A DNA stretch of 64,000 nt from a virus (taxonomy: Duplodnaviria; Heunggongvirae; Uroviricota; Caudoviricetes): positions 21,208 to 85,207 of the IMG/VR virus record IMGVR_UViG_3300047323_000428, one strand, 5' to 3'. Shown here one piece after another: positions 4,163-24,948 of the stretch. The position numbers and the translations under genes were made by a program. Positions within the stretch are counted from its first letter, which is position 1, and each line of letters opens with the position of its first letter. The notes under the pieces were generated by a model. It was not told the DNA's origin, ran no database searches, and worked only from the letters and a program-made list of their open reading frames with translations.

Positions 4163-4818
4163 CAGTCGCCCTCGCCTTCGTCGACGATCTCGTCGTCATC
4201 GAGCGCGGCGAGTTCCGCCTCGAGCTCGGCCTGGTCGGTGCCCGGCAACTTCAGATCGTCGTCCTCGTCGCGCTCCCGCAGCGCCTCAATCTGCTCGGCG
4301 GTGAGTTCGGAAATCACGAGGTCCGGCAGCCCGTCTTCGTCCATCGCGTCGTCGCGGTCCAGACCCAGCACGGCCCAGCGCTCTTCGCGTGCCTTCTTGA
4401 GCACGGTCATTGCCGCATCGAGCGCCTTCAAGTTGTTCAGCGCGGTCGAGACAGCCCGACCCTCGCTCTTTGCCAGCAGAATTTCGTTCCAGGAGAGCTT
4501 CGCGAGGCCGGCGGCCATCTTGTAGTGCTCTTCCTTGGTTTCCTTGATGCGCGCAGCGAGCACGGTCGCGTCGTCGATCGCCGCCTTGGTGACTTCTTCC
4601 TTCACCGCGGCCTTGTGCTCCTCTTTCTTCTTGCCCTTCTCGATGCCTTTGGCCTTGAAGTGCGCGGAGAAGGCCGAGCGGTGCTTGCCAAAGCGCGCGG
4701 CCAGATCCTCGAGGGTGACTTCACCCGACTCCCAAAGCGCTTCAGCCTCGGCCCATTGCTTGGGCGTGAGGCGCGCGTGCTTGGTCTTCGGTGCCGCTAC
4801 AGCAGTTGCTTTCGTCAC
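4162..4818 (-). CDS. Terminase small subunit (helix-turn-helix DNA-binding)
   Basis: Sits immediately upstream of, and is translationally coupled to, the terminase large subunit. Has an N-terminal helix-turn-helix-like segment (LTPKQWAEAEALWESGEVTLEDLAARFG) and an acidic C-terminal tail. GTG start with an AAGGA ribosome-binding site. Confidence 0.55.
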   Translation of the reverse strand: MTKATAVAAPKTKHARLTPKQWAEAEALWESGEVTLEDLAARFGKHRSAFSAHFKAKGIEKGKKKEEHKAAVKEEVTKAAIDDATVLAARIKETKEEHYKMAAGLAKLSWNEILLAKSEGRAVSTALNNLKALDAAMTVLKKAREERWAVLGLDRDDAMDEDGLPDLVISELTAEQIEALRERDEDDDLKLPGTDQAELEAELAALDDDEIVDEGEGD

Positions 4819-4845
4819 TACCAGATCCTTCTCGTTTCAAAATCC

Positions 4846-4874
4846 AAAAAAAAAGGGCGCGTGAGGTGGCGCCC
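4846..4874 (-). terminator. Rho-independent terminator (GGGCGC-N8-GCGCCC followed by a T9 run on the minus strand)
   Basis: Stem-loop at 4855-4874, preceded on the plus strand by a 9-A run (which is the T run on the minus strand). Lies between hypothetical gene 4941-5336 and the terminase small subunit gene. Confidence 0.75.
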
Positions 4875-4937
4875 ATTTCGGAGAGAGAAACTTGCTTCGT
4901 AGGGCTCCACTGTAGCGGCCGCTTTAGCCGTTGTCAA

Positions 4938-4955
4938 CAGTCAATCTTGACTATT
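4938..4955 (-). promoter_or_regulatory. PDM copy (CAGTCAATCTTGACTATT)
   Basis: Overlaps the stop codon of gene 4941-5336. It lies upstream of the terminator and of the terminase small subunit gene. Confidence 0.65.
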
Positions 4956-8694: not shown

Positions 8695-9336
8695 TTACGC
8701 GCAGACGGCTTTGGCGTGAGCCACAAACGCGTCCGCACCCGTGAGTCCGGTTTGCTCTTCGATCAGCGCCATGAAGCGCGCCAGGTGCTTTTCATCTCGG
8801 CCGGCAACGGCTTTGAAGCCCAGCGCCTTCTCGAGCTTCACCTCACGCGCATCGGTCTTCTCGACGGTTTTGGCCGTCTCTGCCGCCTGCTCGCGCACTT
8901 CTGCGTCCAGATCCTCCACGAACGGAGCGTCGTTGATGATCGACAGGTCCGCGGTCATGAAGTCGAGCTCCTTCGGGTCGAAGATGCCTTCGAGGTCGAA
9001 GTCGAGGCTGGCAAGCTCTTCCTGCAGGATGCGCGCGTCGATCTCCGACAGGGCAACCCGGTTGTCCGCCAGGCGCAGCGCGCGTGCTTCCTCTTTGGAG
9101 AGGTCATCGCGCACGACCACCGGCACGTGGGTTTGTCCGAGCGAGAGTGCAGCCAGGCGCCGGCCGTGACCCGCGATGATGGTGCCGTCGGCTTCGGTGA
9201 CGATCGCCGTGTTCCAGCCGAAGGCCTTGATCGACTCGGCGATCTTCTTCACCTGTGCGTCGTCGTGGGTCTTCGCGTTCAGTTCGTAGGGCTTGAGCCA
9301 CTCGACGGGCTTGAGCACCGGTTTGAATTCGTTCAT
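8695..9336 (-). CDS. ParB-like nuclease domain protein (ParB/Srx fold)
   Basis: IVTEADGTIIAGHGRRLAA matches the ParB N-terminal GxxRxxA motif. ATG at 9334-9336 overlaps the upstream stop (ATGA). Confidence 0.6.
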   Translation of the reverse strand: MNEFKPVLKPVEWLKPYELNAKTHDDAQVKKIAESIKAFGWNTAIVTEADGTIIAGHGRRLAALSLGQTHVPVVVRDDLSKEEARALRLADNRVALSEIDARILQEELASLDFDLEGIFDPKELDFMTADLSIINDAPFVEDLDAEVREQAAETAKTVEKTDAREVKLEKALGFKAVAGRDEKHLARFMALIEEQTGLTGADAFVAHAKAVCA

Positions 9337-9551
9337 GCTTTTTCCTGATTCAGATAGGCGACCCACTGGCCTTTCGTCCAGCGACCCCAGTGCTTGGGCG
9401 TGAAAATCATTGCCTCGTAAGACGGCAGGCGCTTGAATTCGGTCGGCCAGAGCGTGCTGTCGTTGATGAAGGCGACTGACACGGTGTAGGCCATGTGGTT
9501 TCTAGCCAGCATGAGCATCACCAGGCCCATCAAAACCAAGCAGACGGTCAT
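9333..9551 (-). CDS. Small membrane protein (72 aa)
   Basis: N-terminal transmembrane helix MTVCLVLMGLVMLMLA. ATG at 9549-9551; the listed first codon is a GTG. Confidence 0.45.
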   Translation of the reverse strand: MTVCLVLMGLVMLMLARNHMAYTVSVAFINDSTLWPTEFKRLPSYEAMIFTPKHWGRWTKGQWVAYLNQEKA

Positions 9552-10163: not shown

Positions 10164-10811
10164 TTATTTCGTGAGGAGGTGAACGAGTGCGGCGCCGGCG
10201 TTCGAGAGCGAGTCGTCCTCGGTGAAGCGCTGGGCCTTCATGGTCTTTTCGATGAGGTCCGTGATGGTGCCGACGTCCTCGACGGGCACCTTGAACCGCA
10301 TGATCTGATGGGTCTGCACGACCGCTTCCTTGGGCAACGGGGTTGGGGCCGCGTCGTCATCCGGTATATCTAAATCATCCAGTTCTATATTTACGGATGA
10401 AAAGATTGAAGCGAAGTCCGCGTCCGTGTAGGGCAAGAACGTTGCGAGGTCTTCGGGCGCTCCCAGACCGTCAAGCAGTTCCGCCAGGCGTAGCGTGTCG
10501 TCGTTGCCGTAGCGGGCGTTGTCGACGAGGCCAATCTCCTTCGCTTTCTGGTCGTCGATGGCACCCACGTTCATCACGGGCACGCGGTCGAAGCCCAGAC
10601 GCATCGCAGCGTCGCGCCGATGAGCGCCACCGAGGATCTGATAGCTGCCGTCGGCAAGGGTGCGCACGATGATCGGCTTGAACATGCCGAGGCGCTTCAG
10701 AGACGCCTCGATCTTGGCCTCCTCTTCCGGGCTGCACACGTTGGTGTTCCAGGGATTGGGCTTGAGCGCGGAAGGCGCCAGTTCGAGCGTTTCGATGTGG
10801 GGCTTACCCAT
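10164..10811 (-). CDS. Second ParB-like nuclease domain protein
   Basis: ILGGAHRRDAAMRLG motif. The likely ATG at 10809-10811 is M4 of the listed ORF, which begins with a TTG. Confidence 0.55.
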   Translation of the reverse strand: MGKPHIETLELAPSALKPNPWNTNVCSPEEEAKIEASLKRLGMFKPIIVRTLADGSYQILGGAHRRDAAMRLGFDRVPVMNVGAIDDQKAKEIGLVDNARYGNDDTLRLAELLDGLGAPEDLATFLPYTDADFASIFSSVNIELDDLDIPDDDAAPTPLPKEAVVQTHQIMRFKVPVEDVGTITDLIEKTMKAQRFTEDDSLSNAGAALVHLLTK

Positions 10812-10833
10812 AGGTTTCAATGGCTTAGTTGGA

Positions 10834-10880: not shown

Positions 10881-12452
10881 ATGGCAACTCAGGACATGGC
10901 AACGATCACGCTGGCATACAACGCAACCACCGCGAAGCTCGTGGAAACCGACCGCGCGCTCAAGCTGGAGGTGCAAAAGCTCGTTTCCTACCGGGTGAGC
11001 GGCGCGGAGAACACGCTGCCCTTCAAAACCGGTGGCTGGGACGGCCGCAGCTCCTTCTTCGACTTTCGCAAGGGCACCTTCCCCGCCGGCTTCGTGCATT
11101 TCGTGGCAGCGGGCCTGCGTCGGGCCGGTCACACGGTGCGCTTCGTGGCAAAGGAAGCCCCGGAGCCGCTCGGACCGCTCAACCCCAAGATCGACAGCTT
11201 CCCGGAAGACGCGCGCTACGACTACCAGATGGAGACGGTCAACCGGCTCGTGAAACACCGCCAGATCATCGCCCAGCTCGCCACGGGCGCGGGCAAGAGC
11301 CGGGTCGCACGCCTTGCCTTCGCGCGTATCCGCCGGCCGACGCTTTTTCTCACCACGCGCTCGATCCTCATGTATCAGATGAAGGACGCGTTCGAAGAGT
11401 TGGGCGTGAAGTGCTCGGTGCTGGGCGACGGACAGTTCGGAACGGTCACAGTCGGCGCCGACGGTGAAGAACGACACTCGGTGAAGATGATGAGCGTTGG
11501 CATGGTTCAGACGCTTGTTTCGCGTCTTGCTGAACCGTGTCCGGACGATGACGTCGACAAGCAAAACGAGCAAGTGCGAATCCGCAACAAGACGATCGCG
11601 CTCTTGGAGAAGTTCGAGTTCGTGATCGGTGAGGAGGCGCACGAGGCGTCGGGCAACAGCTACTACGAGATCCTGCGCCACTGCAAGAACGCGCACTACC
11701 GGCTCGCACTGACAGCCACGCCCTTCATGAAGGACGATGAAGAGTCGAACATGCGCTTGATGGCCGCGTTCGGTCCGATCGGCATCAAGGTCAGCGAGAA
11801 GATGCTGATCGAGCGCGGCATCTACGCCCGCCCCTTCTTCAAATACGTGGCGCTCAAGACCAAGCCGCCCAAGCTCTTTCGGGGCACCACGTGGCAGGCC
11901 GCCTACCGCCTGGGGATTGTCGACAATGCCGAGCGCAATGCCCATATCGTCTTCGAGGCCCGCCGCGGCGTCGCATTGAAGCAGCCGGTGATGATCCTCG
12001 TGCAGCAGACACGCCACGGTGAGCTTTTGCGGGAGATGCTGGCTGCGAAGGGCGTGAAGGTGGAGTTCCTGCAGGGCGAGAACAACGCGAAGGAGCGCAA
12101 AGCGGCGCTCGGGCGTCTTCGGGAGCGGGAAACCGAGGTGCTGATCGGCACGACCATCATGGACGTTGGGGTCGACGTGCCGGCCATCGGGCTGGTGATC
12201 CTCGCCGGTGGTGGGAAGGCGCAGGTGGCGCTGCGTCAGCGGATCGGCCGCGGTGCGCGCGAGAAGAAGAAAGGCCCGAACTGCTTTTTCGTGGTCGACT
12301 TCGATGACCCCTGGAACAGCCACACGAAGGAGCACGCTCTGGCTCGCCGTGCGATCGTGGAGTCGACGCCGGGCTTCGTCGAAAACATCCTCCCGCCGGG
12401 CCGCGACTTCGATTTCGTGGGGCTGGGTTTTGCGACTCGCAAGGCAGCGTGA
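10881..12452 (+). CDS. SF2 DEAD/DEAH-box (type III restriction Res-like / UvsW-like) DNA helicase
   Basis: Walker A QLATGAGKS, DEAH-like VIGEEAHE, motif III LTATP and motif VI QRIGRGAR. ATG at 10881; the listed N-terminal extension overlaps the ParB gene. Confidence 0.75.
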   Translation: MATQDMATITLAYNATTAKLVETDRALKLEVQKLVSYRVSGAENTLPFKTGGWDGRSSFFDFRKGTFPAGFVHFVAAGLRRAGHTVRFVAKEAPEPLGPLNPKIDSFPEDARYDYQMETVNRLVKHRQIIAQLATGAGKSRVARLAFARIRRPTLFLTTRSILMYQMKDAFEELGVKCSVLGDGQFGTVTVGADGEERHSVKMMSVGMVQTLVSRLAEPCPDDDVDKQNEQVRIRNKTIALLEKFEFVIGEEAHEASGNSYYEILRHCKNAHYRLALTATPFMKDDEESNMRLMAAFGPIGIKVSEKMLIERGIYARPFFKYVALKTKPPKLFRGTTWQAAYRLGIVDNAERNAHIVFEARRGVALKQPVMILVQQTRHGELLREMLAAKGVKVEFLQGENNAKERKAALGRLRERETEVLIGTTIMDVGVDVPAIGLVILAGGGKAQVALRQRIGRGAREKKKGPNCFFVVDFDDPWNSHTKEHALARRAIVESTPGFVENILPPGRDFDFVGLGFATRKAA

Positions 12453-12493
12453 ATCGTGGTATTTTCACACTCACTATTGACTATGGAGCGCAA

Positions 12494-12679
12494 ATGAAGC
12501 ACGCCCTGTTTCTGAACCTCATGATCCTCGCGCTCATCCTCGCCGCTCTCTGGATCACTGGCCGCGGAGAAGTGCTGATTGCGCTTGTTATGCTGCGCGA
12601 TATGCCTTTCGGGTTGCTCATGCAGCAGCCGCCCGAAGAGGATGGTGATCCGAAGATCGGCTTCACCGCCGAAGTCTGA
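12494..12679 (+). CDS. Small membrane protein (61 aa)
   Basis: ATG with a GGAG ribosome-binding site; the transmembrane segment is LFLNLMILALILAALWITG. Confidence 0.45.
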   Translation: MKHALFLNLMILALILAALWITGRGEVLIALVMLRDMPFGLLMQQPPEEDGDPKIGFTAEV

Positions 12680-12757
12680 TTTCCGACTGAAAAAGCCGAG
12701 ATTGAGGCGTTCCGGTCGCCAACCACACAGGCGCCTCTTCCCGGTTGCGGAACTTTA

Positions 12758-12789
12758 GCCCCGAGCTAACCACTCGGGGCTTTTTCTTT
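12758..12789 (+). terminator. Rho-independent terminator (GCCCCGAG-N7-CTCGGGGC followed by TTTTTCTTT)
   Basis: 8-bp GC-rich stem followed by a T-rich run on the plus strand, immediately after the helicase and small-membrane-protein unit. Confidence 0.8.
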
Positions 12790-12819
12790 GCACGTGAGTC
12801 TCCTGGACACACTATAATG
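12788..12819 (+). promoter_or_regulatory. Sigma70-like promoter (TTGCAC/CACGTG ... TATAAT)
   Basis: Perfect TATAAT at 12814-12819. TTGCAC sits 20 bp upstream; alternatively CACGTG sits 17 bp upstream. An AAGGAA ribosome-binding site precedes the ATG at 12855. The word TTTTTCTTTGCACGTG recurs at 16031-16046. Confidence 0.55.
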
Positions 12820-12854
12820 CGTGCAGTTATTATTTTTCACGTAAGGAATACAAC

Positions 12855-13124
12855 ATGACCACGGAACGGAAACGCTACACCATCATTATCGGTGCGGAGC
12901 ATCAGGAAAAGCTCGCACGCATGGCGACCGACAACACCATCAGCCAGGCCGACGTGATCGAGGTGCTGGTCGAGCAAGCCGACGAGGCGAAGCTCAAGAA
13001 GGTGTTCGCCGCCAAGAAGGAATCGAAGGTCGAGACGCGCGGGCGCAAGAAGGATCTGGTCAAGGCGATCAACGCGCTCACGCCGGAGGAGAAAGCTGCC
13101 ATTCTCGAGCAGTTGCAGGCGTGA
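12855..13124 (+). CDS. Small DNA-binding-like protein (ribbon-helix-helix/CopG-like, 89 aa)
   Basis: N-terminal KRYTIIIGAEHQEKLARMA...ISQADVIEVLV pattern typical of ribbon-helix-helix regulators, with a Lys-rich C-terminus. Confidence 0.4.
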   Translation: MTTERKRYTIIIGAEHQEKLARMATDNTISQADVIEVLVEQADEAKLKKVFAAKKESKVETRGRKKDLVKAINALTPEEKAAILEQLQA

Positions 13125-13501
13125 TGCGGCTGCTCGTCTGTGGTGGGCGAGACTTTGAAGATCAGCAGTTCACGGATTGGGCGCTCGATGCGATACATGC
13201 ACGGCGCCCAATTTCATTGCTGATCGAAGGAGGCGCTCGAGGAGGAGATCGGTGCGCTCGCAACTGGGCGAAAAGCCGCGGTGTGCCGTTTCGAACGTTC
13301 GACGCTGACTGGACGCGCTATCGTCACCGCGCCGGCCCGATCCGAAACCAGCAGATGCTCGATGAAGGGTGCCCGGACCTCGTAGCAGCCCTTCCAGGCG
13401 GCAAGGGCACGACGGATATGGTGATGAAGTCCAGAGCCGCGGGTGTGCGCGTCATCACGCTCTGGAGCCACTACGATCGTTACAGATTGGCACTCAGGTA
13501 G
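13121..13501 (+). CDS. SLOG-fold (DUF2493/DprA-LOG-like Rossmann) protein
   Basis: LLVCGGRDFEDQ...LLIEGGARGGDRCARNWA...PGGKGTTDM pattern. Its start overlaps the upstream stop (ATGA). Confidence 0.4.
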   Translation: MMRLLVCGGRDFEDQQFTDWALDAIHARRPISLLIEGGARGGDRCARNWAKSRGVPFRTFDADWTRYRHRAGPIRNQQMLDEGCPDLVAALPGGKGTTDMVMKSRAAGVRVITLWSHYDRYRLALR

Positions 13502-13932
13502 TCGCGGAATTTGCGCTGCGGGATGCCAATCTTCTTCGCGCATTCGTCATAGACCGGTCCCGGCTGTCCGTTGCTCTGATACATGCCTCGGCACACTCCG
13601 TCGAGCGCAATCACCATCCCACCACCCGCTGCAGGGGTGCGACGCGCATAGAAGCTCACGTATCCGGTGTGGATCGGCGTATAGGTGTCGATCGCTCCCA
13701 CGTCCATCACCCTCACCCGCATGTCGGAATTCGCTTCGACGTAGGCTCGCGTGAGCAACCACATGCGGTCGCACTCCGACTGGCTTGAGCACGACACCTG
13801 TGCGGCCTGTCGGACGGTGGCAAGCGCCTGTTCGATATCTTGGATGTTCTTCGCCTGCTCGGGCGTGTATTGAGTCGCGCAGCCAGTGAGTGCGAGCGCA
13901 GCGAGCCCGAAGGCGATGGTGGTTTTGAGCAT
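13480..13932 (-). CDS. Lipoprotein (150 aa)
   Basis: Signal peptide with lipobox MLKTTIAFGLAALALTGC. ATG at 13930-13932 with a GGGAGG ribosome-binding site. It converges on the plus-strand cassette. Confidence 0.6.
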   Translation of the reverse strand: MLKTTIAFGLAALALTGCATQYTPEQAKNIQDIEQALATVRQAAQVSCSSQSECDRMWLLTRAYVEANSDMRVRVMDVGAIDTYTPIHTGYVSFYARRTPAAGGGMVIALDGVCRGMYQSNGQPGPVYDECAKKIGIPQRKFRDYLSANL

Positions 13933-13963
13933 GTTGTGGGCCTCCCTCGAAATTGTCGGAGGG

Positions 13964-13969
13964 ATTATA
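13964..13969 (-). promoter_or_regulatory. Candidate -10 hexamer TATAAT for the lipoprotein gene
   Basis: On the minus strand, TATAAT lies 20 nt upstream of the GGGAGG ribosome-binding site. No convincing -35 element is present. Confidence 0.3.
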
Positions 13970-14216
13970 GATGCGGCACTCGCCGCCGGACCCAAACTAT
14001 AAGAACCCCGCTTACCCGTCCCCACTCCCAAGTTCCCAAGAACCCAGTCCCAAGGTGGAAGTGTGCGGTGGTGCGGTTGGTGTGTGGAAGTATAAGGAGC
14101 CGAGGCCTAGGCCTACCGGGAAATATAAGGGAGCGCTTTTGGCGGTCTGGAACGAGGAAGGGAGGGCCATCGCACCGCGCGAGATTTTCTAGGACTTCGC
14201 TCTCTCGCGGTTTCGA

Positions 14217-14402
14217 CTACTGCACGCGTCGCACGTTGACGCTTGCAATCGCGCGGTGCGTCGCATTGTCTTCAGCAAGCTTGCGAATCGCTGCGAGACG
14301 CTTTGCATAGTGACGTTCGTTCGATTCGATGAACGCTGCGAGCAAACCGAACATAACGACAGCGCTGATGATTGCGAAGAGTGAGAACGGTTCGAAGTGC
14401 AT
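14217..14402 (-). CDS. Small membrane protein (61 aa) inside the compositional island
   Basis: Transmembrane segment FSLFAIISAVVMFGLLAAFI. ATG with an AAGGGA ribosome-binding site. Codon usage is GCA/GAA/CGT-rich, unlike the rest of the window. Confidence 0.5.
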   Translation of the reverse strand: MHFEPFSLFAIISAVVMFGLLAAFIESNERHYAKRLAAIRKLAEDNATHRAIASVNVRRVQ

Positions 14403-14412
14403 GCTAGTCCCT

Positions 14413-14445
14413 TAGTCAGTTTTGAGTGTTTCACGTGAAACACTC
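14413..14445 (-). promoter_or_regulatory. PDM variant (TAGTCAGTTTTGAGTGTT) fused to a 22-bp perfect palindrome GAGTGTTTCACGTGAAACACTC
   Basis: The palindrome spans 14424-14445 around a CACGTG core, 10 nt upstream of the 14402 start codon. An identical palindrome occurs at 15104-15125. Confidence 0.8.
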
Positions 14446-14604
14446 GTTGCGGTGTGTAGCAACGTGCTACAGAAAGAATACTAACACGCGATTAAATCAG
14501 CGTGCAAGTATTTTGTGTCACGTATGCAAAAACTTTCTGTTCAAACGTGAAACCGGAACCGTGAACCGTGCGAGTAATGACGATATACATAGCTGAGAAG
14601 CGAT

Positions 14605-14619
14605 TAGAGACGTTTTGAG
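14605..14619. repeat. Direct repeat TAGAGACGTTTTGAG (second copy at 18886-18900)
   Basis: Exact 15-mer shared by two non-coding regions. A partial third copy lies near 14671. Confidence 0.6.
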
Positions 14620-14682
14620 ACGTTCGCACGGTGCGCTAGTGTGTTGACTAGCATTGAACCGTGCGAACGCGCTAGAGACGGT

Positions 14683-15075
14683 TTAAACGAGTGTGAGCGC
14701 AAACGGATAAAACGCTTTGAGCGCTTCGTCAAACTCAAGTTCGAGCGCAGACAATTCGACTTGATACGCTGCACGCATGCGCTCTTTCGAGAAAACGACG
14801 TCAGATTCATGCACGATGCACGCGGTATGCTCTGCGTTGTCATACGTGACAACGATCGCGTATTCATACGCACCGTTAGCAACGTAGAGCAATTCGACGC
14901 TCTGCGAGTAGTTGACGATACGAACGCGTTCGCTGAGTTCGTCTGCGTTGTCTAGCAAGTCATTTGCTGCGCTGAGTGCGAGCGGTGCAAAGACAACCGG
15001 TTTAACCGCTTGCGCTTCGTTGCGCGCGTCGCGTGCATCTGCGAGTTCTGCGAGTGCTTTTACGAGAGTGTTCAT
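14683..15075 (-). CDS. Hypothetical protein (130 aa) in the compositional island
   Basis: ATG at 15073-15075. The listed N-terminus MFHVKHS is merely the translation of the upstream palindrome. Codon usage is atypical. Confidence 0.5.
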   Translation of the reverse strand: MNTLVKALAELADARDARNEAQAVKPVVFAPLALSAANDLLDNADELSERVRIVNYSQSVELLYVANGAYEYAIVVTYDNAEHTACIVHESDVVFSKERMRAAYQVELSALELEFDEALKAFYPFALTLV

Positions 15076-15103
15076 TCTGTGCGTCTCTGAGTGTTGAGAA
15101 AAT

Positions 15104-15138
15104 GAGTGTTTCACGTGAAACACTCATCATTGACTGTT
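15104..15138 (-). promoter_or_regulatory. Second copy of the palindrome GAGTGTTTCACGTGAAACACTC plus a half-PDM (CATCATTGACTGTT)
   Basis: Perfect 22-bp palindrome at 15104-15125, about 30 nt upstream of the 15075 start codon. Confidence 0.8.
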
Positions 15139-15143
15139 ACGCG

Positions 15144-15989
15144 TTACGCGTTAAACATCGCTTGCAGCTTTTGCGCTGCTTTCGATTCCGTAAACGTCAT
15201 TGCATCGTCTTTTTTCGACTTCGCAACGTTGCAGACATTCAGAAAGCGCATTGCTTGTCGCGTGCTGCTTGCTTGCGTGCTTGCGGTTGACGGTGCGCAA
15301 TCTTTGTATGCGCGCACCGCTTCGGTTTGCATCGCTTCGTCAAACACGATTGCACGCGAGAGCGCACGTTGTGAACCGCGGTTCGAGAGCGAATGCAGCG
15401 AAACAAGATTCTGCATGATCGAGCGCGTGTAACCGTCAAAAACCGAAGTCATACCGGTTGCGAGTGCGAAAAGCGACTTGCGGATTTTTTGCGCTGCGTA
15501 AATCGCAACGTAATCGTGCGCTTTGTCGTCTGCGATTGCGTAAGCGGTTGCAAGCGATTCAAAATCAACTTCGAGTTCTACGCACTTTTCAATTGCGATC
15601 AGCGCATTGCGACCGCTCAGCGCGTTGAGTTCTGCGAGCATGTTCTTTGCGAAGTTCGCAGACGGTGCGTTGTCAATGCGCACTTGAACCGATTCGAGCA
15701 AGAGCGCTTGCGCTGCTTCTGCTTTTGCGCGCAACTCTTCTGCGCTCAGCACAACCGGTTGCGCTTCGTCTGCTTGCGCTTCGTTCGCTTCGGTTTCGAC
15801 TGCAAGCGTTTCGACTGCTTGCGCTTCGTCTGCGCTGAGCGCTTCGTCTGCTTGCGCTGCGAGTTCAGCGTTTTGCGCTGCGATCATTGCTGCTTCTGCT
15901 TGCGCTGCTTTCTCTGCTTTCGTGAGTCGCTTCGTCATTTTCGTTTCTCGCTTAGTGTGTTGTTTTGTTTTCGTCGCTGCACCGTGCAT
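15144..15989 (-). CDS. Hypothetical protein (about 280 aa; Ala/Glu/Gln-rich coiled-coil N-terminal part and a C-terminal domain) in the compositional island
   Basis: First ATG at 15987-15989; an alternative ATG lies at 15938. Strong GCA/GAA/CAA/AAA codon bias unlike the surrounding genome. Confidence 0.5.
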   Translation of the reverse strand: MHGAATKTKQHTKRETKMTKRLTKAEKAAQAEAAMIAAQNAELAAQADEALSADEAQAVETLAVETEANEAQADEAQPVVLSAEELRAKAEAAQALLLESVQVRIDNAPSANFAKNMLAELNALSGRNALIAIEKCVELEVDFESLATAYAIADDKAHDYVAIYAAQKIRKSLFALATGMTSVFDGYTRSIMQNLVSLHSLSNRGSQRALSRAIVFDEAMQTEAVRAYKDCAPSTASTQASSTRQAMRFLNVCNVAKSKKDDAMTFTESKAAQKLQAMFNA

Positions 15990-16000
15990 CGACAAGACGA

Positions 16001-16029
16001 ATTATGCACGTATCTTTTGCGACGTGCAA
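16001..16029 (-). promoter_or_regulatory. Sigma70-like promoter TTGCAC-N17-CATAAT driving gene 15144-15989
   Basis: On the minus strand the -35 element is TTGCAC (16024-16029), the spacer is 17 bp, and the -10 element is CATAAT (16001-06). This leaves a leader of about 10 nt. Confidence 0.6.
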
Positions 16030-16075
16030 CCTTTTTCTTGCACGTGTTTTAGAGTGCGTTCTCTAAAAATAATTG

Positions 16076-16105
16076 TTGCACGTTAGAAAAACGACGTGCT
16101 ATAGT
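16076..16105 (+). promoter_or_regulatory. Sigma70-like promoter TTGCAC-N18-TATAGT pointing into the T-depleted region
   Basis: The -35 element is at 16076-16081 and the -10 element at 16100-16105. A weaker upstream element (TTGCACGTG ... TAAAAAT, 16038-16070) repeats the TTTTTCTTGCACGTG word seen at the 12788 promoter. Confidence 0.55.
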
Positions 16106-16112
16106 TCTATCA

Positions 16113-16360
16113 CTGCAACGCGAAACGGAGTGACGAACGAAACGAACGAAAGCGAGAATCGACCGAAGACTGAAACCGAGCGACGCGAGACGCGACGCGA
16201 CGAACCGAAAAACGGTGCGCTCGAACCGAGCGACGGAAAAACGGAACGCGCGACGCGACGAAGCGAAAAACGGATCGCACGCAGTGAGACTGCGCGACAC
16301 GTGACGCTCGAACCGCGCGAGATGCGCGACGCACGCGCTGCGCCGGCGGCCGGCGCATGA
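16113..16360 (+). ncRNA. Candidate non-coding transcript with an extreme T-depleted composition
   Basis: About 250 nt with very few T on the plus strand (CGA/ACG/GAA-type repeats), directly downstream of the 16076-16105 promoter. It ends at the GCGCCGGCGGCCGGCGC palindrome (16340-16356). It contains no convincing ORF. Confidence 0.3.
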
Positions 16361-16396
16361 GGGAGACGGCCTAGGAGGTTTGCCTGCCGCCTTGGT

Positions 16397-16469
16397 CAAA
16401 ACTCCCTATCAGTGTCGGGCGAGGCTCCCGTTCAAATTCCCTATCAGTGTCGGCGACGGCTCCCGTTCC
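16397..16469. repeat. Two tandem iteron-like units (U1 16397-16433, U2 16434-16469)
   Basis: CAAAACTCCCTATCAGTGTCGGGCGAGGCTCCCGTTC and AAATTCCCTATCAGTGTCGGCGACGGCTCCCGTTCC. The conserved core is GTGTCGG-N6-GCTCCCGTTYC. Confidence 0.75.
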
Positions 16470-16554
16470 TTTCCATTCCACTCCACACCCCTAGGCCGAT
16501 CCCCTAGGCCGTGAGCAACAGCACCAAAAGGCGCCACACGGGCGCCCTTCTCCC

Positions 16555-16743
16555 TCAATACAGCTCCATCACACCCACACGGCCGTTGGTGCGCACTTGG
16601 CGACGCAGGTGCAGGATCTCCGCCTCTTCCTGCTGCTCCTCGAGCCAGTCGATAAGTTCGTGCGGCTTGGCGGCGCGGTGCTGGTGGTCGATGGGCTCAG
16701 CAGCGGTGATGGTCGATTCGAAGGCGCGGTGCGTGGTGTTCAT
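16555..16743 (-). CDS. Small hypothetical protein (62 aa)
   Basis: ATG at 16741-16743 (M60 of the listed ORF) and an acidic C-terminal half. The support is weak. Confidence 0.3.
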   Translation of the reverse strand: MNTTHRAFESTITAAEPIDHQHRAAKPHELIDWLEEQQEEAEILHLRRQVRTNGRVGVMELY

Positions 16744-16751
16744 GGCAGTAA

Positions 16752-16892
16752 TCAGGTTTGAGTATTGGAGCGGATACGACGGGAAAGAAACAGGATGAGG
16801 TCGACGAACTTCATCCAGGCAAAGGTGATGCCGGCGCCCGTGAGGGCGATCAGCAACACCGCGAGAATCAGTTGGGCGGTGTCTTGGGTCAT
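16752..16892 (-). CDS. Small hydrophobic membrane protein (46 aa), not in the ORF table
   Basis: ATG at 16890-16892. The sequence is MTQDTAQLILAVLLIALTGAGITFAWMKFVDLILFLSRRIRSNTQT. It abuts the stop of 16896-17180. Confidence 0.35.
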   Translation of the reverse strand: MTQDTAQLILAVLLIALTGAGITFAWMKFVDLILFLSRRIRSNTQT

Positions 16893-16895
16893 GGC

Positions 16896-17180
16896 TTATC
16901 CGACGAGCATCGGGGAGCACTCGGGATCGACTTCAGGGTTCAAGTCGAAATACAGGGCGCGCTGACAGGCGCGGTTGCAGGCGTCGATGTGATCGGCTCG
17001 GGCAATCTCGTAGACGGCGAAATCGCAACCGTGGGTTTCTTGTTGGAGCGCGACGAACTCGTCACCGTCGGAGGTGATGAGGAACTGGGAGAACGTCGAG
17101 TCGAGGAACAAGAACACGTCGGTCTTCGTGTTGTAGAAAGCGCGCAAGTCAGTGATCGGCAGCGTCGTCGGTGTTTTCAT
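16896..17180 (-). CDS. Hypothetical protein (94 aa)
   Basis: ATG at 17178-17180 (M23 of the listed ORF), downstream of an approximately 600-bp non-coding repeat region. Confidence 0.4.
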   Translation of the reverse strand: MKTPTTLPITDLRAFYNTKTDVFLFLDSTFSQFLITSDGDEFVALQQETHGCDFAVYEIARADHIDACNRACQRALYFDLNPEVDPECSPMLVG

Positions 17181-17408
17181 CGCGTTTCTCGCGTTGTTTG
17201 AAAGTGATGCTATTGTCTCGACCCGCGAGAGGGACAACTGTGGCAATCGTTCGAGGCGGCTCGGGAGCTGGTCAGGCTCTCTCCCTACCGCGGCCTAGGC
17301 GTTTTCCCAAGGCCTTCCCCTGCTCTCCTCTCTCCTACCGGCCTAGGCCGTCTCCCATAGGCGGCTACCCAAGGGGATCGGCCTAAAAGGGGCCGAGGAC
17401 AATCCAAT

Positions 17409-17446
17409 CAAAACTCCGTAGGGTGTCGGCCGCGGCTCCCGTTTCC
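17409..17446. repeat. Iteron-like unit U3 (CAAAACTCCGTAGGGTGTCGGCCGCGGCTCCCGTTTCC)
   Basis: Same GTGTCGG...GCTCCCGTTTCC core as U1 and U2. Confidence 0.75.
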
Positions 17447-17483
17447 ACGGGGATCGGCCTAGGCCTCGCAGGTGCGCGGGGCG

Positions 17484-17522
17484 AAAAATTTGGAATGGGT
17501 GTCGGCACCGGCTGCCGTTTCC
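17484..17522. repeat. Iteron-like unit U4 (AAAAATTTGGAATGGGTGTCGGCACCGGCTGCCGTTTCC)
   Basis: Core conserved. Its hairpin is CGGCA-N5-TGCCG. Confidence 0.7.
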
Positions 17523-17548
17523 TCGACGCTCTCCCCACGCACGCGCAC

Positions 17549-17590
17549 GGGGTTTGGGTTGGTTTGGTTTTAGGGGTTGGTTTTGGGTTT
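17549..17590 (+). repeat. Telomere-like G/T tract with G-quadruplex potential (GGGGTTTGGGTTGGTTTGGTTTTAGGGGTTGGTTTTGGGTTTT)
   Basis: Runs of GGGG/GGG separated by T-rich loops. It is followed at about 17633-17646 by CCCCCCCTCCCCCC. Confidence 0.6.
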
Positions 17591-17809
17591 TAAACTGCAT
17601 CCGATGAGGAACCCTACGGTGAAGAACCAAGTCCCCCCCTCCCCCCACAGACCTATAATCAGTGAGAGCAGGGGAGAACTCGATCCCACCAAGGGCACAC
17701 ATCGGAGGCTATCCGCGTATGGCAACCCAACAGGCAAGAACCAAGTCCCCCAGAAGAAGAAGCGACTCCCGACGCCAAGTGCTCGTCGGCAAACAATGTG
17801 CGGGAATCA

Positions 17810-17827
17810 TAGTCAATGGTGACTGTT
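17810..17827 (-). promoter_or_regulatory. PDM copy (TAGTCAATGGTGACTGTT) about 600 nt upstream of the nearest minus-strand CDS
   Basis: The motif matches, but the long non-coding stretch downstream of it contains iteron units U3 and U4 and the G-tract. Confidence 0.65.
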
Positions 17828-18010
17828 GGGTCAAGCGGCAATGTTGCGTGCGGGTAACGTGGGAGGGATCGGTTGGCAGGTGGGAAGTGTAAGAGTTGGG
17901 CGGCGCGGAACATTTTTCGTCGCTCCATAGCCATCCCCTCTTCCACCCGCGCTACTCCCCTTCCACGCAGCCCCTCTCCTCTGTTCCCCACACCTACCGC
18001 CCCTCTCTCT

Positions 18011-18253
18011 CTACCAGCTCCCATACTCTCCATACGCCTCCCGTGCGGGATCGTATAGGTCTTCCTCCGTCACTCCCGAGAACGTCGCGTTCATCATCCA
18101 TTCCAGATCCACGTGGTCGAACTCCGAGAGCCTGAATCTCCTACAAAGCGTCTCGTCCAGCACCATCACCTCTCTGCCTGTCTTGGTGTCGTGGGCGGTG
18201 TAGTAGCGGCTGCCGTCCTTTGTGTGCCCGCTGTCGTCGAGCTTGAGCTCCAT
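18011..18253 (-). CDS. Small protein (80 aa), paralog-array member with a C-terminal YGEYGSW
   Basis: The ATG overlaps the upstream stop (TGGTAGATGG junction). The C-terminal tail is ...EAYGEYGSW. Confidence 0.55.
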   Translation of the reverse strand: MELKLDDSGHTKDGSRYYTAHDTKTGREVMVLDETLCRRFRLSEFDHVDLEWMMNATFSGVTEEDLYDPAREAYGEYGSW

Positions 18254-18556
18254 CTACCATACCTCTCCATACCCCTGTGCTCGATCCCCTCTCCCCTTGA
18301 GCACCGTCGTCTTCACCTTCTTCCCGATGTTGTTGAACTGGAACTGTAGGTCGTAGATGTTGAGCTCCATGAAGCCGGGGAACTGCATTCCGACGATGGA
18401 TTCGCCTGCGTCGAGTGCGTCACGAACTGCCGCGTAGACCGTGAGTTGGTTTTCGTAGACCGAGCCGGTGCCTATGTCGCCGGTGCTGTCGCTCACTACG
18501 GTGACAGGGTAACGGCCGGCTGCGCTTTTCTTGTCTGTGATCTTGATGGTTGCCAT
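18254..18556 (-). CDS. Small protein (100 aa), paralog-array member with a C-terminal GYGEVW
   Basis: The ATG overlaps the upstream stop (TGGTAATGG). The C-terminus is ...RAQGYGEVW. Confidence 0.55.
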   Translation of the reverse strand: MATIKITDKKSAAGRYPVTVVSDSTGDIGTGSVYENQLTVYAAVRDALDAGESIVGMQFPGFMELNIYDLQFQFNNIGKKVKTTVLKGRGDRAQGYGEVW

Positions 18557-18798
18557 TACCAGACCTCTCCATACCCGGTTACTTCGTCCTTCTCGGTGTA
18601 GGGCGTGTCGTCCGGGTCGGTCAGGGCAAACCTAAGCCATTTGGTGTCGAAGCTGCCGAGCTTCTGGCCTACCTGGATTGGTGCTGGGTATTTGCTCTGG
18701 AGCAGGGTCGTCGGCATGGTGTAGTCCTCGAACGTCTTGGAGATGTGAATCTCGGTCCAGGTGTCGTTGTGTGCCAGGACGCTCACGTCGATTAGCAT
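18556..18798 (-). CDS. Small protein (80 aa), paralog-array member with a C-terminal GYGEVW
   Basis: The C-terminus is ...VTGYGEVW. It is the first gene after the 18.8-19.2 kb non-coding region. Confidence 0.55.
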   Translation of the reverse strand: MLIDVSVLAHNDTWTEIHISKTFEDYTMPTTLLQSKYPAPIQVGQKLGSFDTKWLRFALTDPDDTPYTEKDEVTGYGEVW

Positions 18799-19146
18799 AG
18801 GCCTTCTCTCTGCGGTTTCATTGCTTGATTGTCTCGTCTGCGGTGTGGGGTTGCTGCGGGAATCGTCGATTGGCTCTGAGCGCTTTAGAGACGTTTTGAG
18901 CGATCGGGGCGCGCGCTGCTGTCTGCGTGCGTCTTGAGCTTGGTGGCGCGCTTGTAGCGCGTTTTGACGCGTCCCTGAAGCGGTTGTGTCGCTCGGTTCG
19001 TCTGCGCTCGGTGCGCTTAGTCGGGTGTCAGAGTTGGCTTATACTTCTGTCGCAGATACGGCCAACTATAAGAGTGGAAATTCCCTTATAGATCAATGGC
19101 TTAGGAGTGATGGCCAAGGATCTCGGCCTAGGGCCGGTAACTCGAC

Positions 19147-19174
19147 AAGAAAAGGGGCTCCGAAGAGCCCTTTT
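19147..19174 (-). terminator. Rho-independent terminator after mazF (GGGGCTC-cgaa-GAGCCC flanked by an A-run and a T-run; bidirectional)
   Basis: Stem-loop at 19154-19170, with AAGAAAA upstream and TTTT downstream. Confidence 0.75.
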
Positions 19175-19177
19175 GCC

Positions 19178-19516
19178 TCACAGTTGGAGAAATGCGCGGA
19201 TCGCATATTTGGCGGCCGCGAGCTCGTCCTCTGTCGCCTGCTCGCCCTTGAAATCCACCTTTCGCTCGGTGTAACTCCAGGTGCTTATCTGATCGACCTG
19301 GGCCACACCTGGGCGAGCCAGGCTGTCGATCGGGATTTCCGTCTCCCACCCTCTCACGGTGGAGGTGATGGGCAGCCCAGTGAAGCGGCTGGTGATCTGA
19401 TTTACAACAAAGCTGGAGATCACCAACACCGCACGATAGCCGTCCTGCTCGTTACCTTTGGACGGGCCGATGTGCAGTCTCACGATATCGCCCGCTTCCG
19501 GAATGCCGTTCTTCAT
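19178..19516 (-). CDS. mazF: MazF/PemK-family endoribonuclease toxin
   Basis: PEAGDIVRL...GNEQDGYRAVLVISS...LPITS profile typical of Kid/PemK/MazF. Lies 3 nt downstream of the antitoxin. Confidence 0.8.
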   Translation of the reverse strand: MKNGIPEAGDIVRLHIGPSKGNEQDGYRAVLVISSFVVNQITSRFTGLPITSTVRGWETEIPIDSLARPGVAQVDQISTWSYTERKVDFKGEQATEDELAAAKYAIRAFLQL

Positions 19517-19519
19517 GTG

Positions 19520-19807
19520 TCACCAATTGTCGTTTCGGTCAGGATCGTCGGGGCCGCCCGTTTCGTTGCCGACGGGATCGCCCCAGTCGATTGTTTCGTG
19601 CGGAACGAGCTTGCCCTCCTCATGCTGCTGAATCAGGCGCTCAAGCGAGAATCGCCTGATCGCGGTGTGCGGCCGCACCTGTAGGCGCCCGTCTTCGACC
19701 ACCACATCCACTTCTTGGCCCTCTTGCAGAGCCACCTCGTCGGCCAAGCTGGCCGGAATACGCACTGCGAGGCTGTTGCCCCAGCGCTTTACTGTCTGAA
19801 TGGCCAT
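19520..19807 (-). CDS. mazE: MazE/AbrB-type (SpoVT/AbrB domain) antitoxin
   Basis: VKRWGNSLAVRIPASLADEVALQEGQEVDVVVEDGRLQVRP is a SpoVT/AbrB swapped-hairpin domain. Sits upstream of mazF. Confidence 0.8.
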   Translation of the reverse strand: MAIQTVKRWGNSLAVRIPASLADEVALQEGQEVDVVVEDGRLQVRPHTAIRRFSLERLIQQHEEGKLVPHETIDWGDPVGNETGGPDDPDRNDNW

Positions 19808-19853
19808 TTCCGCACTCCATTGCGTTGCTGCGTTGAAACACTACTCCGTGAGG

Positions 19854-19919
19854 CGTATAAACACGTTGCTACGTTTCTATCGTAGCGCTCGACTCTTGGA
19901 GTGTCAACGCGTTTATACG
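19854..19919. promoter_or_regulatory. Candidate mazEF operator: a 15-bp inverted repeat CGTATAAACACGTTG / CAACGCGTTTATACG flanking an inner palindrome GCTACGtttctatCGTAGC
   Basis: The inverted-repeat arms lie at 19854-19868 and 19905-19919, with the inner palindrome at 19868-19886, immediately upstream of mazE. Confidence 0.5.
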
Positions 19920-19922
19920 TTC

Positions 19923-20153
19923 CTACCAGGTGCCCATGTCCGCGTAGGCCGGCTCGGGTCTCAGGATGGGCACCTGGTAGTCCGACAACAGGCTATAGGC
20001 CACGTTGTCGACGAACTGGAAGCTCTCGCCGGGCAACAACTGCATCTGGGCGTAGATGCGCGCGGTTTGCATGTTGGGCGTGCGGCAGGTGTTCTCCAAC
20101 CACGCCCGGTAGCCGCCCTTCATGCTTCGGGCGATTTCGTCGCATTCGGTCAT
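19923..20153 (-). CDS. Hypothetical protein (76 aa; C-terminus ...ADMGTW)
   Basis: ORF coupled (ATGA) with the next gene. Confidence 0.45.
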   Translation of the reverse strand: MTECDEIARSMKGGYRAWLENTCRTPNMQTARIYAQMQLLPGESFQFVDNVAYSLLSDYQVPILRPEPAYADMGTW

Positions 20154-20515
20154 CGCGGCATCTCCGGCATTGGGCCGATCCGATGCACGACGCTCGTTGG
20201 CAGCTCGGCCATCGTGGTCGGCGTCTTCTTGGGGCGGCCGCGCTTCTTGGCTGGCTCTGCGGGAGTCTCCACCTGCGGCATCGCAATACTTGCGGCCACC
20301 CGCCTTTCGAGGCCGAGCGCCGTGAAATGCGCCTTCGCCTCGTCCTTGTCGTTCGGGAACAGGGTATAGAGCGTGTTCGGGTCCGGCAGCAAGGCGACGT
20401 CGAGCACCAGGGTCATCGAGCCGTTCTCATTGCACCAAAGTGCGCCGATCTTGCCCGAGCGGTGCTCCGTCACCTTGTTGAGCGCCTTTAGGATGAAGTC
20501 AGGGCTGCGGCTCAT
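20150..20515 (-). CDS. Hypothetical protein with an AT-hook-like KKRGRPKK segment (121 aa)
   Basis: ATG at 20513-20515 (M57 of the listed ORF). Confidence 0.4.
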   Translation of the reverse strand: MSRSPDFILKALNKVTEHRSGKIGALWCNENGSMTLVLDVALLPDPNTLYTLFPNDKDEAKAHFTALGLERRVAASIAMPQVETPAEPAKKRGRPKKTPTTMAELPTSVVHRIGPMPEMPR

Positions 20516-20870
20516 TTTCTCCCTCCGCCCGATCCGCGCAGTTTCCGCACAGGCCGTCAAAGCCATCGCCGTTGTCGTTGGGCTCGCCGCACTCCCGGCA
20601 GGTGTCTTGGTCGTGCGGCAGCCACACCCACGCCTGCACCCACGTTCCCTCGTCGCCTGCCGATGTGAGCGCGCCGTCGTCAATCTCCACGTCGTCGTTG
20701 CTGCCGAGCGCGTATTTGTCGCGGGCGCGGGCGATTTCCTTGTCGTCGGCGAAGGTCGTCTCTTGCCGGGCCTTCCTGAGCAGGTTCAGGGTATGGCCCA
20801 CTTCGCCGTCGGTGCCGTTGTCCAGCTTTTCCAGGTAGGCGTCGAGCGCCTCAATGACTGCCAGCGTCAT
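20499..20870 (-). CDS. Hypothetical acidic protein with a C-terminal CxxC...CxxC zinc ribbon
   Basis: Motif CRECGEPNDNGDGFDGLCGNC. Confidence 0.45.
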   Translation of the reverse strand: MTLAVIEALDAYLEKLDNGTDGEVGHTLNLLRKARQETTFADDKEIARARDKYALGSNDDVEIDDGALTSAGDEGTWVQAWVWLPHDQDTCRECGEPNDNGDGFDGLCGNCADRAEGENEPQP

Positions 20871-21222
20871 CCTTCTTCTCCCGTGCTTGCATCATGGCGT
20901 CGGCGAACTTGTAGGCAAGGCAGGAGGTGTGATCGGCATAGGCCGAGAGGTCGTCGCGTCCGGCCAACAATCCCTCGAGCGCGGCCATTGCGAACTTGTC
21001 GCGCAGCATTTGGCGCGAGTTTTCCCTGTCACGCGCGAGGCGCACCCGGTCGCGCACCACTTCCACCGCCTCCGGCATGGAAAGACCGCCCGCGACCAAG
21101 ACCTCGCGCAGTCGTTCGTTGGTGATTGGCTTTGCCACTTTCTTTCTCCTATAAGAGCCGTTGTTCTCAAGGTTGGCGCCTCCGCGCTTTCCCCCGATTA
21201 CGCGCCCGTCCGATTCAGGCAA
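20851..21222 (-). CDS. Hypothetical protein (123 aa)
   Basis: ORF overlapping the neighbouring gene by 20 nt. Confidence 0.4.
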   Translation of the reverse strand: MPESDGRVIGGKRGGANLENNGSYRRKKVAKPITNERLREVLVAGGLSMPEAVEVVRDRVRLARDRENSRQMLRDKFAMAALEGLLAGRDDLSAYADHTSCLAYKFADAMMQAREKKDDAGSH

Positions 21223-24907: not shown

Positions 24908-24948
24908 TTAAAAGTCCCAGTATGTGTCGGGCGCCGCTCCCGTTTCAG
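24908..24948. repeat. Iteron-like unit U5 (TTAAAAGTCCCAGTATGTGTCGGGCGCCGCTCCCGTTTCAG)
   Basis: Same core as U1-U4. It sits at the edge of a 470-bp non-coding gap that also holds three CCTAGG and one GCTAGG site, and two short direct repeats (GTGGCGCCAGGG twice, AGTGGCGAGG twice). Confidence 0.7.

Follow-up and report, generated by a model that had tools for sequence, protein, structure and literature searches.

What does a phage do with about 230 nt of DNA from which one of the four bases is almost missing? The question is raised by a locus in IMG/VR virus record IMGVR_UViG_3300047323_000428, of which we analysed positions 21,208 to 85,207 (64,000 nt, one strand, 5′ to 3′). This whole stretch is referred to as 'the window', and all positions given below are counted within it. 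Behind a promoter-like sequence at 16076–16105 lies a T-depleted element (16112–16340, plus strand) that an initial annotation had proposed to be an unusual non-coding RNA. We find that the element has homologues in two other lineages, in which blocks of it are nearly invariant while its flanks have diverged; that no reading frame is conserved in it; that it shares an operator-like sequence with the divergent promoter of a neighbouring gene, from whose upstream region part of it is an inverted duplicate; and that it occupies a position filled in related phages by other repeat arrays. We favour, tentatively and with a probability of about 40%, the reading that the element specifies an early, repressor/operator-controlled non-coding RNA that acts through an invariant hairpin module on some partner.

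Composition of the element

The element consists of the following parts.

16076–16105, plus strand: P_R, the putative rightward early promoter (–35 hexamer TTGCAC at 16076–16081, 18-nt spacer, –10 hexamer TATAGT at 16100–16105).
16106–16165, plus strand: leader segment which, together with P_R, is an inverted paralogue of the neighbouring gene's promoter, 5′ untranslated region (UTR) and start-codon region.
16112–16340, plus strand: T-poor non-coding body, defined by composition; the presumed transcript of P_R would start near 16112.
16151–16180, plus strand: conserved 5′ block AGCGAGAATCGACCGA[A/T]GACTGAAACCGAG, invariant at 29 of 30 columns in three lineages.
16191–16335, plus strand: five degenerate 29-nt units in register, starting at 16191, 16220, 16249, 16278 and 16307.
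16276–16339, plus strand: invariant 3′ module, identical at 63 of 64 nt in three lineages.
16340–16356, strand not applicable: 17-bp G+C palindrome GCGCCGGCGGCCGGCGC, directly 3′ of the invariant module; a possible 3′-end hairpin without a U tract.

The body comprises 75 A, 66 C, 75 G and 13 T (229 nt, 5.7% T). Segments of this length contain 50.8 T on average across the 64 kb (standard deviation, 8.1), and the minimum, 12, falls at the element. The two longest T-free runs in the window, of 53 and 44 nt, are both inside it. The G+C content of the region is 57–66%, and no segment is AT-rich. The promoter, the T-poor stretch and the palindrome are thus where the initial annotation had placed them, and the depletion of T is as strong as it supposed. 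Its statement that such strand asymmetry is very unusual for this genome is only partly right: the asymmetry is extreme for the window, but not unique. The second most extreme depletion of any single base lies alongside, in the 5′ portion of the coding sequence of the adjacent gene, on the minus strand (13 A in 229 nt of the plus strand, at 15756). This coding region is equally T-poor on its own sense strand, and so both divergent arms are T-poor in the sense direction.

Homologues and conservation

The protein encoded by this adjacent gene, 264 amino acids (aa) long, has 22 relatives in metagenomes, and we compared their contigs at the region upstream of the gene. The T-poor element, which we term 'type A', is present in three lineages: the window, IMGVR_UViG_3300046500_000231 (L004, L005, L006 and L022), and contig L013. 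The homologous elements contain 13 T in 199 nt (L004) and 12 T in 200 nt (L013). Across the three lineages the neighbouring gene is 60–90% identical in nucleotide sequence, and its protein 69–70% identical; flanking sequence, for example just to the right of the element, is only 28–52% identical. Between the two invariant blocks, the middle of the element has accumulated substitutions and indels. Invariant blocks set beside diverged segments in this mosaic fashion imply constraint on the blocks rather than a single, recent transfer of the whole cassette, and the comparison argues that the element is under constraint. The palindrome is a different matter. It is present at 16340–16356, as the initial annotation reported, but its sequence is not conserved, and L004 and L013 have different G+C hairpins in its place.

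Pairwise differences between the lineages seldom involve T inside the element (14 of 93), compared with the flanks (99 of 204). This avoidance of T during divergence is weak evidence for selection, because the sequences compared were already T-poor and new units in the variable middle arise as copies of T-free ones.

Searches for further copies were negative. Near and distant DNA searches, and tblastn, found no match to the element among GenBank phages; IMG/VR, scanned with the two conserved blocks, yielded the L004 contig only; and a 22-mer from the invariant block, run against metagenomes, found nothing. Protein-guided scans of IMG/VR, genomes and metagenomes reached at least 40 loci, and none held a further type A element. 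The invariant 3′ module has no second copy in the window, the fetched loci, IMG/VR or plasmids.

Coding potential

Where the plus strand lacks T, none of the six frames can be closed by a stop codon, and the start codons ATG, GTG and TTG cannot occur on that strand; open frames therefore carry no evidence of coding here. The alignment is more informative. The window differs from L004 and L013 by a 29-nt indel and by indels of 2 and 3 nt. L004 and L013 possess ATG-initiated open reading frames (ORFs) of 29 and 30 codons, which end at a common TGA within the invariant block; the two peptides are far less alike than the underlying DNA, and the ATG is AAG in the window (16166–16168). The window has a GTG-initiated frame of 76 codons on the plus strand, the GTG of which has no spacing to its GGAG. 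It reads the invariant block in a frame other than that of the relatives, shifted by the 29-nt insertion. Minus-strand frames are also shifted among the homologues, and one lacks a start. Neither long ORF of the element matches Pfam or PHROG. Coding on either strand is contradicted by the indels, by the change of ATG to AAG and by the differing frames of the invariant block, and we conclude from the alignment that the element is non-coding on both. The initial annotation, too, saw no credible ORF, and named a conserved, translated peptide in relatives as the finding that would speak against an RNA; in the three homologues, no frame is conserved on either strand, nor is the start codon.

Divergent promoters and a shared operator

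The sigma70-like promoter noted at the outset is flanked on its left by a second promoter, and a gene, of the opposite orientation.

16001–16029, minus strand: P_L, the putative divergent early promoter of the winged-helix gene (TTGCAC-N17-CATAAT).
15147–15938, minus strand: neighbouring early gene, 264 aa; variable, low-complexity N-terminus and conserved C-terminal winged helix-turn-helix fold.

An operator-like inverted repeat, GCACGT-N10-ACGTGC (22 bp), occurs exactly twice in the 64 kb, once in P_L (16006–16027) and once in P_R (16078–16099). Each copy spans the –35 to –10 region of its own promoter. P_R has, in addition, TG at 16097–16098, which makes its –10 an extended one. In the alignment of the window with L004 and L013, the P_R hexamers, the TG, the inverted repeat and the flanking words are invariant, and the spacer varies. 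P_R is oriented against every surrounding gene, and no plus-strand gene lies downstream of it.

The 264-aa winged-helix protein is a candidate binder of the shared operator. Its family (PHROG 4202/9272, without annotation) combines a hypervariable N-terminus, rich in Ala, Glu and Gln, with a C-terminal winged-helix domain that carries an invariant CxPSTASTQASSTR motif. Members occur also in 153 Acinetobacter phage-plasmids, and in Acinetobacter plasmid pA52-1 a homologous TTGCAT-N17-TAATAT is found upstream of the homologous gene. No Rep-type Pfam domain matches the protein.

Origin by inverted duplication

P_R, with the first ~90 nt behind it, is paralogous, in inverted orientation, to the divergent promoter and 5′ UTR of the 264-aa gene and to the start of that gene. 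In L004, local alignment of the two divergent units scores 53, compared with 19.9 ± 2.7 for shuffled sequences (z about 12), and extends through the ATG into the coding region. An nhmmer profile of the element matches the opposite-strand unit in the window, L004 and L013, with E-values from 1.5e-4 to 8e-4. The leader and 5′ coding region of the parental unit are T-poor, and much of the T-poverty of the element is therefore inherited. Nothing in the parental unit corresponds to the invariant 3′ block.

29-nt units and a cassette slot

A repeat search recovered a family within the element (D1) of two to three well-recognisable copies, 69–71% alike, at spacings of 29 and 29 nt. Autocorrelation of the window element peaks at lags of 29 (0.48) and 58 (0.51), compared with a 95% value of 0.41 for shuffles. 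One unit (16218–16246) is present in the window only, and corresponds to a 29-column gap in L004 and L013; the insertion is exactly one unit long. Within this window-specific unit, on the minus strand at 16218–16232, is a terminator-like hairpin, CGCTCGGTTCGAGCG followed by CACCGTTTTT, that is absent from L004 and L013.

The region upstream of homologues of the 264-aa gene takes at least three forms, types A, B and C. Type B, more common than any other alternative, is an array whose units contain GGATGAGGA (L003, L007, L009, L010, L012, L015/L016, L017, L020 and L040), and in eight of these loci (L003, L007, L010, L012, L015, L017, L020 and L040) it comprises two to six tandem units with exact 29-nt spacing throughout. 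Types A and B are unrelated, yet have the same unit length. The type B unit consists of a 21-nt hairpin, GGAUGAGGA-YGN-UYCnCRUYC, and an 8-nt linker, and the arrays sit behind a conserved TTGACG/TTGCAG-N17-TAGACG motif. The outer stem of the hairpin contains 26 G·U wobbles and one double change, from U-A to C-G, when read as the rightward strand; the opposite strand would have C·A mismatches. Strand-specific wobble is the signature of an RNA helix, and so the slot appears to encode rightward RNAs. Within IMG/VR, type B arrays are confined to this phage group. Type C occurs in L060 (Logan SRR26541656), some 200–420 nt upstream of its 272-aa gene, and is a stretch of ~220 nt whose 75% A+T stands out against the G+C-rich remainder of that phage; it combines a large inverted repeat with ACTGTAT/ATTATCAT repeats that recur at periods of 16/32/48. 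In L001 the slot is free of all such arrays. The type of cassette does not co-vary with the neighbouring winged-helix protein. On the reading we favour, the slot would hold interchangeable RNA cassettes, the T-poor element being one.

Other non-coding stretches of biased composition occur near more distant relatives of the gene. In L027 (1120–1470), L033 (100–450) and L032 (600–830), A-rich (43–50%), T-poor (6–9%) stretches with stops in all frames are found 1–2 kb ahead of the homologous gene and share its strand; of the three, L033 alone is enriched in GGA (15, compared with 9.1 ± 1.8). In pA52-1 (L062), 1.3 kb of purine-rich, C-poor non-coding DNA with ATGTAGAAA/GATAGAGATA repeats (3620–4945) lies ~2 kb upstream of the winged-helix gene.

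A possible early RNA

From these observations we judge that the element is probably made as RNA. P_R, of the host type (TTGCAC-N18-TGcTATAGT), would start a transcript near 16112, directed against the surrounding genes. Through the shared operator, both divergent units are probably active together early and then turned off together by one dimeric DNA-binding protein; the simplest such repressor would be the winged-helix protein itself. The product would be an RNA of ~230–250 nt with ~6% U, made up of degenerate 29-nt units, an invariant 64-nt G-C hairpin module and a lineage-specific G+C hairpin. It might serve as a decoy or regulator, binding a host or phage factor by way of the invariant module. 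Small, promoter-proximal decoy RNAs are known in phages (Racr; PMC10651486). The predicted hairpins of the module have 5-bp G-C stems and 5-nt loops: CGCAG-UGAGA-CUGCG, and CGCGC-GAGAU-GCGCG, the latter being an alternative to GCGCG-ACGCA-CGCGC, such that two are mutually exclusive.

Several findings weigh against this reading. The –35 hexamer of P_R matches TTGACA at only three of six positions, and a consensus promoter scan did not call it; it is conservation and paralogy that speak for P_R, rather than any closeness to the consensus, and the initial annotation's promoter stands on that footing. Predicted folding is not clearly more stable than that of shuffled sequence (z = –1.9 and –2.3 for the plus and minus strands, respectively, and ~0 for the 3′ module by itself). 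Three homologues with nearly invariant conserved blocks furnish no covariation. For a partner, target or complementary site, the window offers just matches of 12–17 nt, at the level of chance. Selection may not be needed to keep the element T-poor, given the duplication of T-free units and the T-poor starting sequences. Autocorrelation of L013 peaks at 29, but in L004 the 29-nt period is not significant. Finally, the invariant module would suit a binding site on DNA equally well: it includes a CACGTG core and, at a distance of 32 nt from each other, two copies of the word TGCGCGAC, direct repeats next to units of 29 bp.

A more specific form of the RNA proposal is one we regard as improbable. 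The slot, placed between the early promoters and the upstream operon, would serve RNA-based counter-defence, by means of interchangeable, spacer-less arrays of 29-nt units (U-poor, or of the GGAUGAGGA hairpin type) that an operator-controlled promoter expresses in an early burst and that are shut off in Aca-like manner by the winged-helix protein, and mimic host RNA (CRISPR repeats or antitoxin RNA), thereby titrating a processing or effector protein. Near-absence of U would then avoid start and stop codons, intrinsic terminators and U-dependent RNase sites.

Alternative explanations

The rival that survives best, though we still think it unlikely, is that the element acts in cis as DNA, either as binding sites (iteron-like, partition-related or an auxiliary operator) or as a transcription-activated or RNA-primed origin of a plasmid-like prophage, in which case the promoter would do no more than open or prime the site. 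The phage is syntenic with true Acinetobacter phage-plasmids, and two perfect copies of the canonical chromosomal parS, TGTTTCACGTGAAACA, lie 1–1.7 kb from the element, between the minus-strand early genes (14427–14442 and 15107–15122), each in an identical 23-nt palindrome. Relatives have kept these: a perfect parS occurs just after the 264-aa homologue in L004, L007, L009, L010, L013, L017 and L060. Among the other cassettes of the slot are some that look like iteron arrays, or like an AT-rich repeat region. There is precedent, moreover, in mycobacteriophages, where a reverse-oriented non-coding RNA beside parABS is needed for replication of the extrachromosomal prophage (PMC7157519). Against an origin, the element has no AT-rich unwinding segment, and its nearest-neighbour hybrid-minus-duplex energy is unexceptional by the approximate parameters used (z = –0.87; at least ten places in the window are more prone to R-loops). 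The Acinetobacter relatives have their plasmid replicon (Rep_3-type repM, DnaB and primase) ~45 kb from this region, and no RepM homologue is present in the window; the distant repM weakens the case for a plasmid origin at the slot. The independence of cassette type from the winged-helix protein, and the strand-specific G·U pattern of the sister type B cassette, which is typical of RNA, count against DNA-level action more generally.

Somewhat less probable is that the element has no function, and is the decaying, T-poor relic left when the early promoter, its leader and the low-complexity 5′ coding region were duplicated in inverted orientation. The paralogy with the divergent unit is clear, and the element is as T-poor as the parental 5′ coding region. 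It is absent from most relatives. L004 and L013 retain an ATG but poorly conserved peptides, of 29–30 aa, and the window has lost the ATG. Neutral decay, or one recent transfer, would not be expected to leave mosaic conservation in three lineages whose neighbouring proteins are just 69–70% identical, nor does it account for an invariant 3′ block without parental counterpart.

We also doubt that transcription is itself the sole function. P_R might fire toward the 3′ end of the upstream leftward operon so as to block, or pair with, read-through transcripts otherwise bound for the early operon, the sequence of the RNA mattering little. Its orientation against every neighbouring gene, with no plus-strand gene to follow, fits this, as do the repeated intergenic motifs just downstream (16412–16467), which are possible phage-sigma promoters or terminators. 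Such interference leaves unexplained, however, why 64 nt and 30 nt within the transcribed part are near-perfectly conserved when the flanks have diverged, and why the 29-nt unit is held in common with hairpin arrays.

The more familiar RNA classes fare worse. That the RNA is a sponge, titrating a global host RNA-binding protein (CsrA/RsmA or Hfq) by exposed GGA or A-rich motifs, was among the suggestions of the initial annotation, and is now very improbable. GGA words are present, as it said, but are fewer than base composition predicts: 4, compared with 8.1 ± 2.2 in mononucleotide shuffles and an insignificantly lower 2.6 ± 1.1 in dinucleotide shuffles. All four are ACGGA in A-rich, weakly structured context, which favours CsrA, and ANGGA is commoner in the window copy than in dinucleotide shuffles (4, compared with 1.1 ± 1.0). 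Taken together, we regard neither GGA nor ANGGA as enriched. The relatives have 3 GGA, of which just 2 are ANGGA; two sites read GGU instead in one or another of the lineages; and in the sister type B cassette the GGA words are base-paired within the stem. Rfam 15, searched with both strands of 13500–18500 at E ≤ 1 as the initial annotation had advised, contains no match, including to the CsrB, CsrC and Rsm families. An Hfq-type small RNA would be expected to end in a terminator hairpin with a U tail. On the plus strand the element ends without a terminator-like site; the palindrome there, which is followed by ATGAGGGAG, is not a canonical intrinsic terminator. Nor is the structured leader that was also suggested supported, since no gene follows on the plus strand and the fold, which the initial annotation had proposed to predict, reaches a z of just –1.9.

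Least tenable is a small protein gene, whether for an E/R/T-rich peptide from the plus strand or an Arg/Ser-rich protein from the minus strand, as the ATG-initiated ORFs of L004 and L013 with their common stop, and the long GTG frame of the window, are contradicted by the alignment, in which the start is lost, frames shift on both strands and the peptides diverge, and by the want of a Pfam or PHROG match.

Genome setting

The window is ~61% G+C and encodes the functions of a large tailed phage: portal, terminase, DnaE-type polymerase, ribonucleotide reductase, SbcCD and RtcB. It has no close relative among GenBank phages. Its portal is 52–57% identical to those of Rhizobium phages and SSU5-like elements, and 61.6% to those of ~110-kb Acinetobacter phage-plasmids, with which it shares the order capsid, portal, terminase, ParB-like genes, DEAD helicase and 264-aa gene homologue. 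On these comparisons the phage is an uncultivated one of ~110 kb, syntenic with SSU5 and the Acinetobacter phage-plasmids. A Logan contig (L061) is identical to window positions 11727–20655.

The element forms the right edge of a stretch of ~52% G+C (14190–16340) that contains three small minus-strand genes and sigma-70-type early promoters. Relatives display the same G+C contrast, and so the stretch is an old feature, not a recent insertion. A ParB_N-domain ORF is found at 10164–10820 and a weaker one at 8695–9366; together with the parS sites, these suggest that ParB from the phage itself or from the host may be brought to the early region.

To the right of the element, the intergenic motif GTGTCGGCG-N3/4-GCTCCCGTT recurs in one orientation at 16412–16432, 16447–16467, 17423–17443, 17499–17519 and 24924–24944. 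It has 6 occurrences, compared with 0.06 expected, lies in CCTAGG-rich spacers and is kept in all relatives. The set may represent promoters or terminators for a phage-encoded sigma factor, a homologue of which is encoded at 61210–61788. The TCCCTATCAGTG words at 16403 and 16438, which are tetO-like and, reversed, resemble T7/SP6-type promoters, were considered and rejected: the part in question is not conserved, and in the relatives only GTGTCGGCG-N4-CTCCCGTT is. A MazE/PemK-type toxin–antitoxin pair is located at ~19180–19800 (from the L061 gene table), and occurs also in L003 and L012. No reverse transcriptase, such as a diversity-generating retroelement would require, was seen among the ORFs profiled.

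Comparison with known systems

The element belongs to no described RNA family. If it truly gives rise to an early decoy or regulatory RNA, that RNA would found a new family among the few phage non-coding RNAs that are active at the start of infection, and the slot would mark a site of cassette exchange, an easy place to seek RNA-based functions in the widespread but little-studied relatives of SSU5 and the Acinetobacter phage-plasmids. Should it instead prove a relic, or no more than an antisense promoter, nothing would set it apart from what divergent early control regions ordinarily contain. The near-absence of U from a natural transcript, and a 29-nt unit common to an unrelated hairpin array, are features that can be tested directly.

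CsrB, RsmY and RsmZ sponges are, as the element would be, promoter-driven, repeat-containing non-coding RNAs of a few hundred nt; the element differs from them in that its GGA words are neither enriched nor conserved and do not lie in hairpin loops, and in that it lacks a terminator and matches nothing in Rfam. Origins specified by non-coding RNA, namely those associated with parABS in mycobacteriophages (PMC7157519) and RNA II of ColE1, are likewise promoter-driven and opposed to their neighbours, near parS and with plasmid-like relatives. Here, too, the putative RNA runs opposite to its neighbours beside partition functions, the two parS sites (14427–14442 and 15107–15122) and the ParB_N ORF (10164–10820). 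It has no sequence similarity to these systems, no signal of a persistent RNA–DNA hybrid and no unwinding element, and the closest cultured relatives carry their replicon, of the Rep_3-type repM kind, elsewhere in the genome. Iteron-type origins are more distant again, since the repeats of the element are 69–71% alike, its neighbour has no Rep Pfam match and a RepM homologue is lacking in the window.

Type III antitoxin arrays (ToxI-like), and the pseudo-ToxI of phages, resemble the slot in having a promoter followed by tandem RNA units of some tens of nt, the number of which varies between phages. The units of the element, however, are ~70% alike, and no plus-strand (toxin) gene follows, although toxin families were not searched by profile. 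Divergent autoregulated regions of the Aca type, or the Cro/CI type, compare well in layout: early promoters stand back to back with the same inverted-repeat operator, and a winged-helix gene comes first in one arm. The second arm, by contrast, makes no protein here, and binding of the operator by the winged-helix protein is putative.

Racr, in which solitary CRISPR-repeat units stand behind a strong phage promoter (PMC10651486), differs in that no acr gene adjoins the element, and in PLSDB plasmids no CRISPR-like repeats resemble either the invariant block or the type B hairpin unit. We regard the relation as one of architectural resemblance only. Both would be small non-coding RNAs directly behind a phage promoter, accessory and varying between related phages. 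The element places its predicted hairpin module at the 3′ end of a weakly structured RNA, its 29-nt unit is within the length range of CRISPR repeats, and P_R lies 170–230 nt upstream of the module (16276–16339), within the 250 bp that define the distance from promoter to repeat-like hairpin in Racr (PMC10651486).

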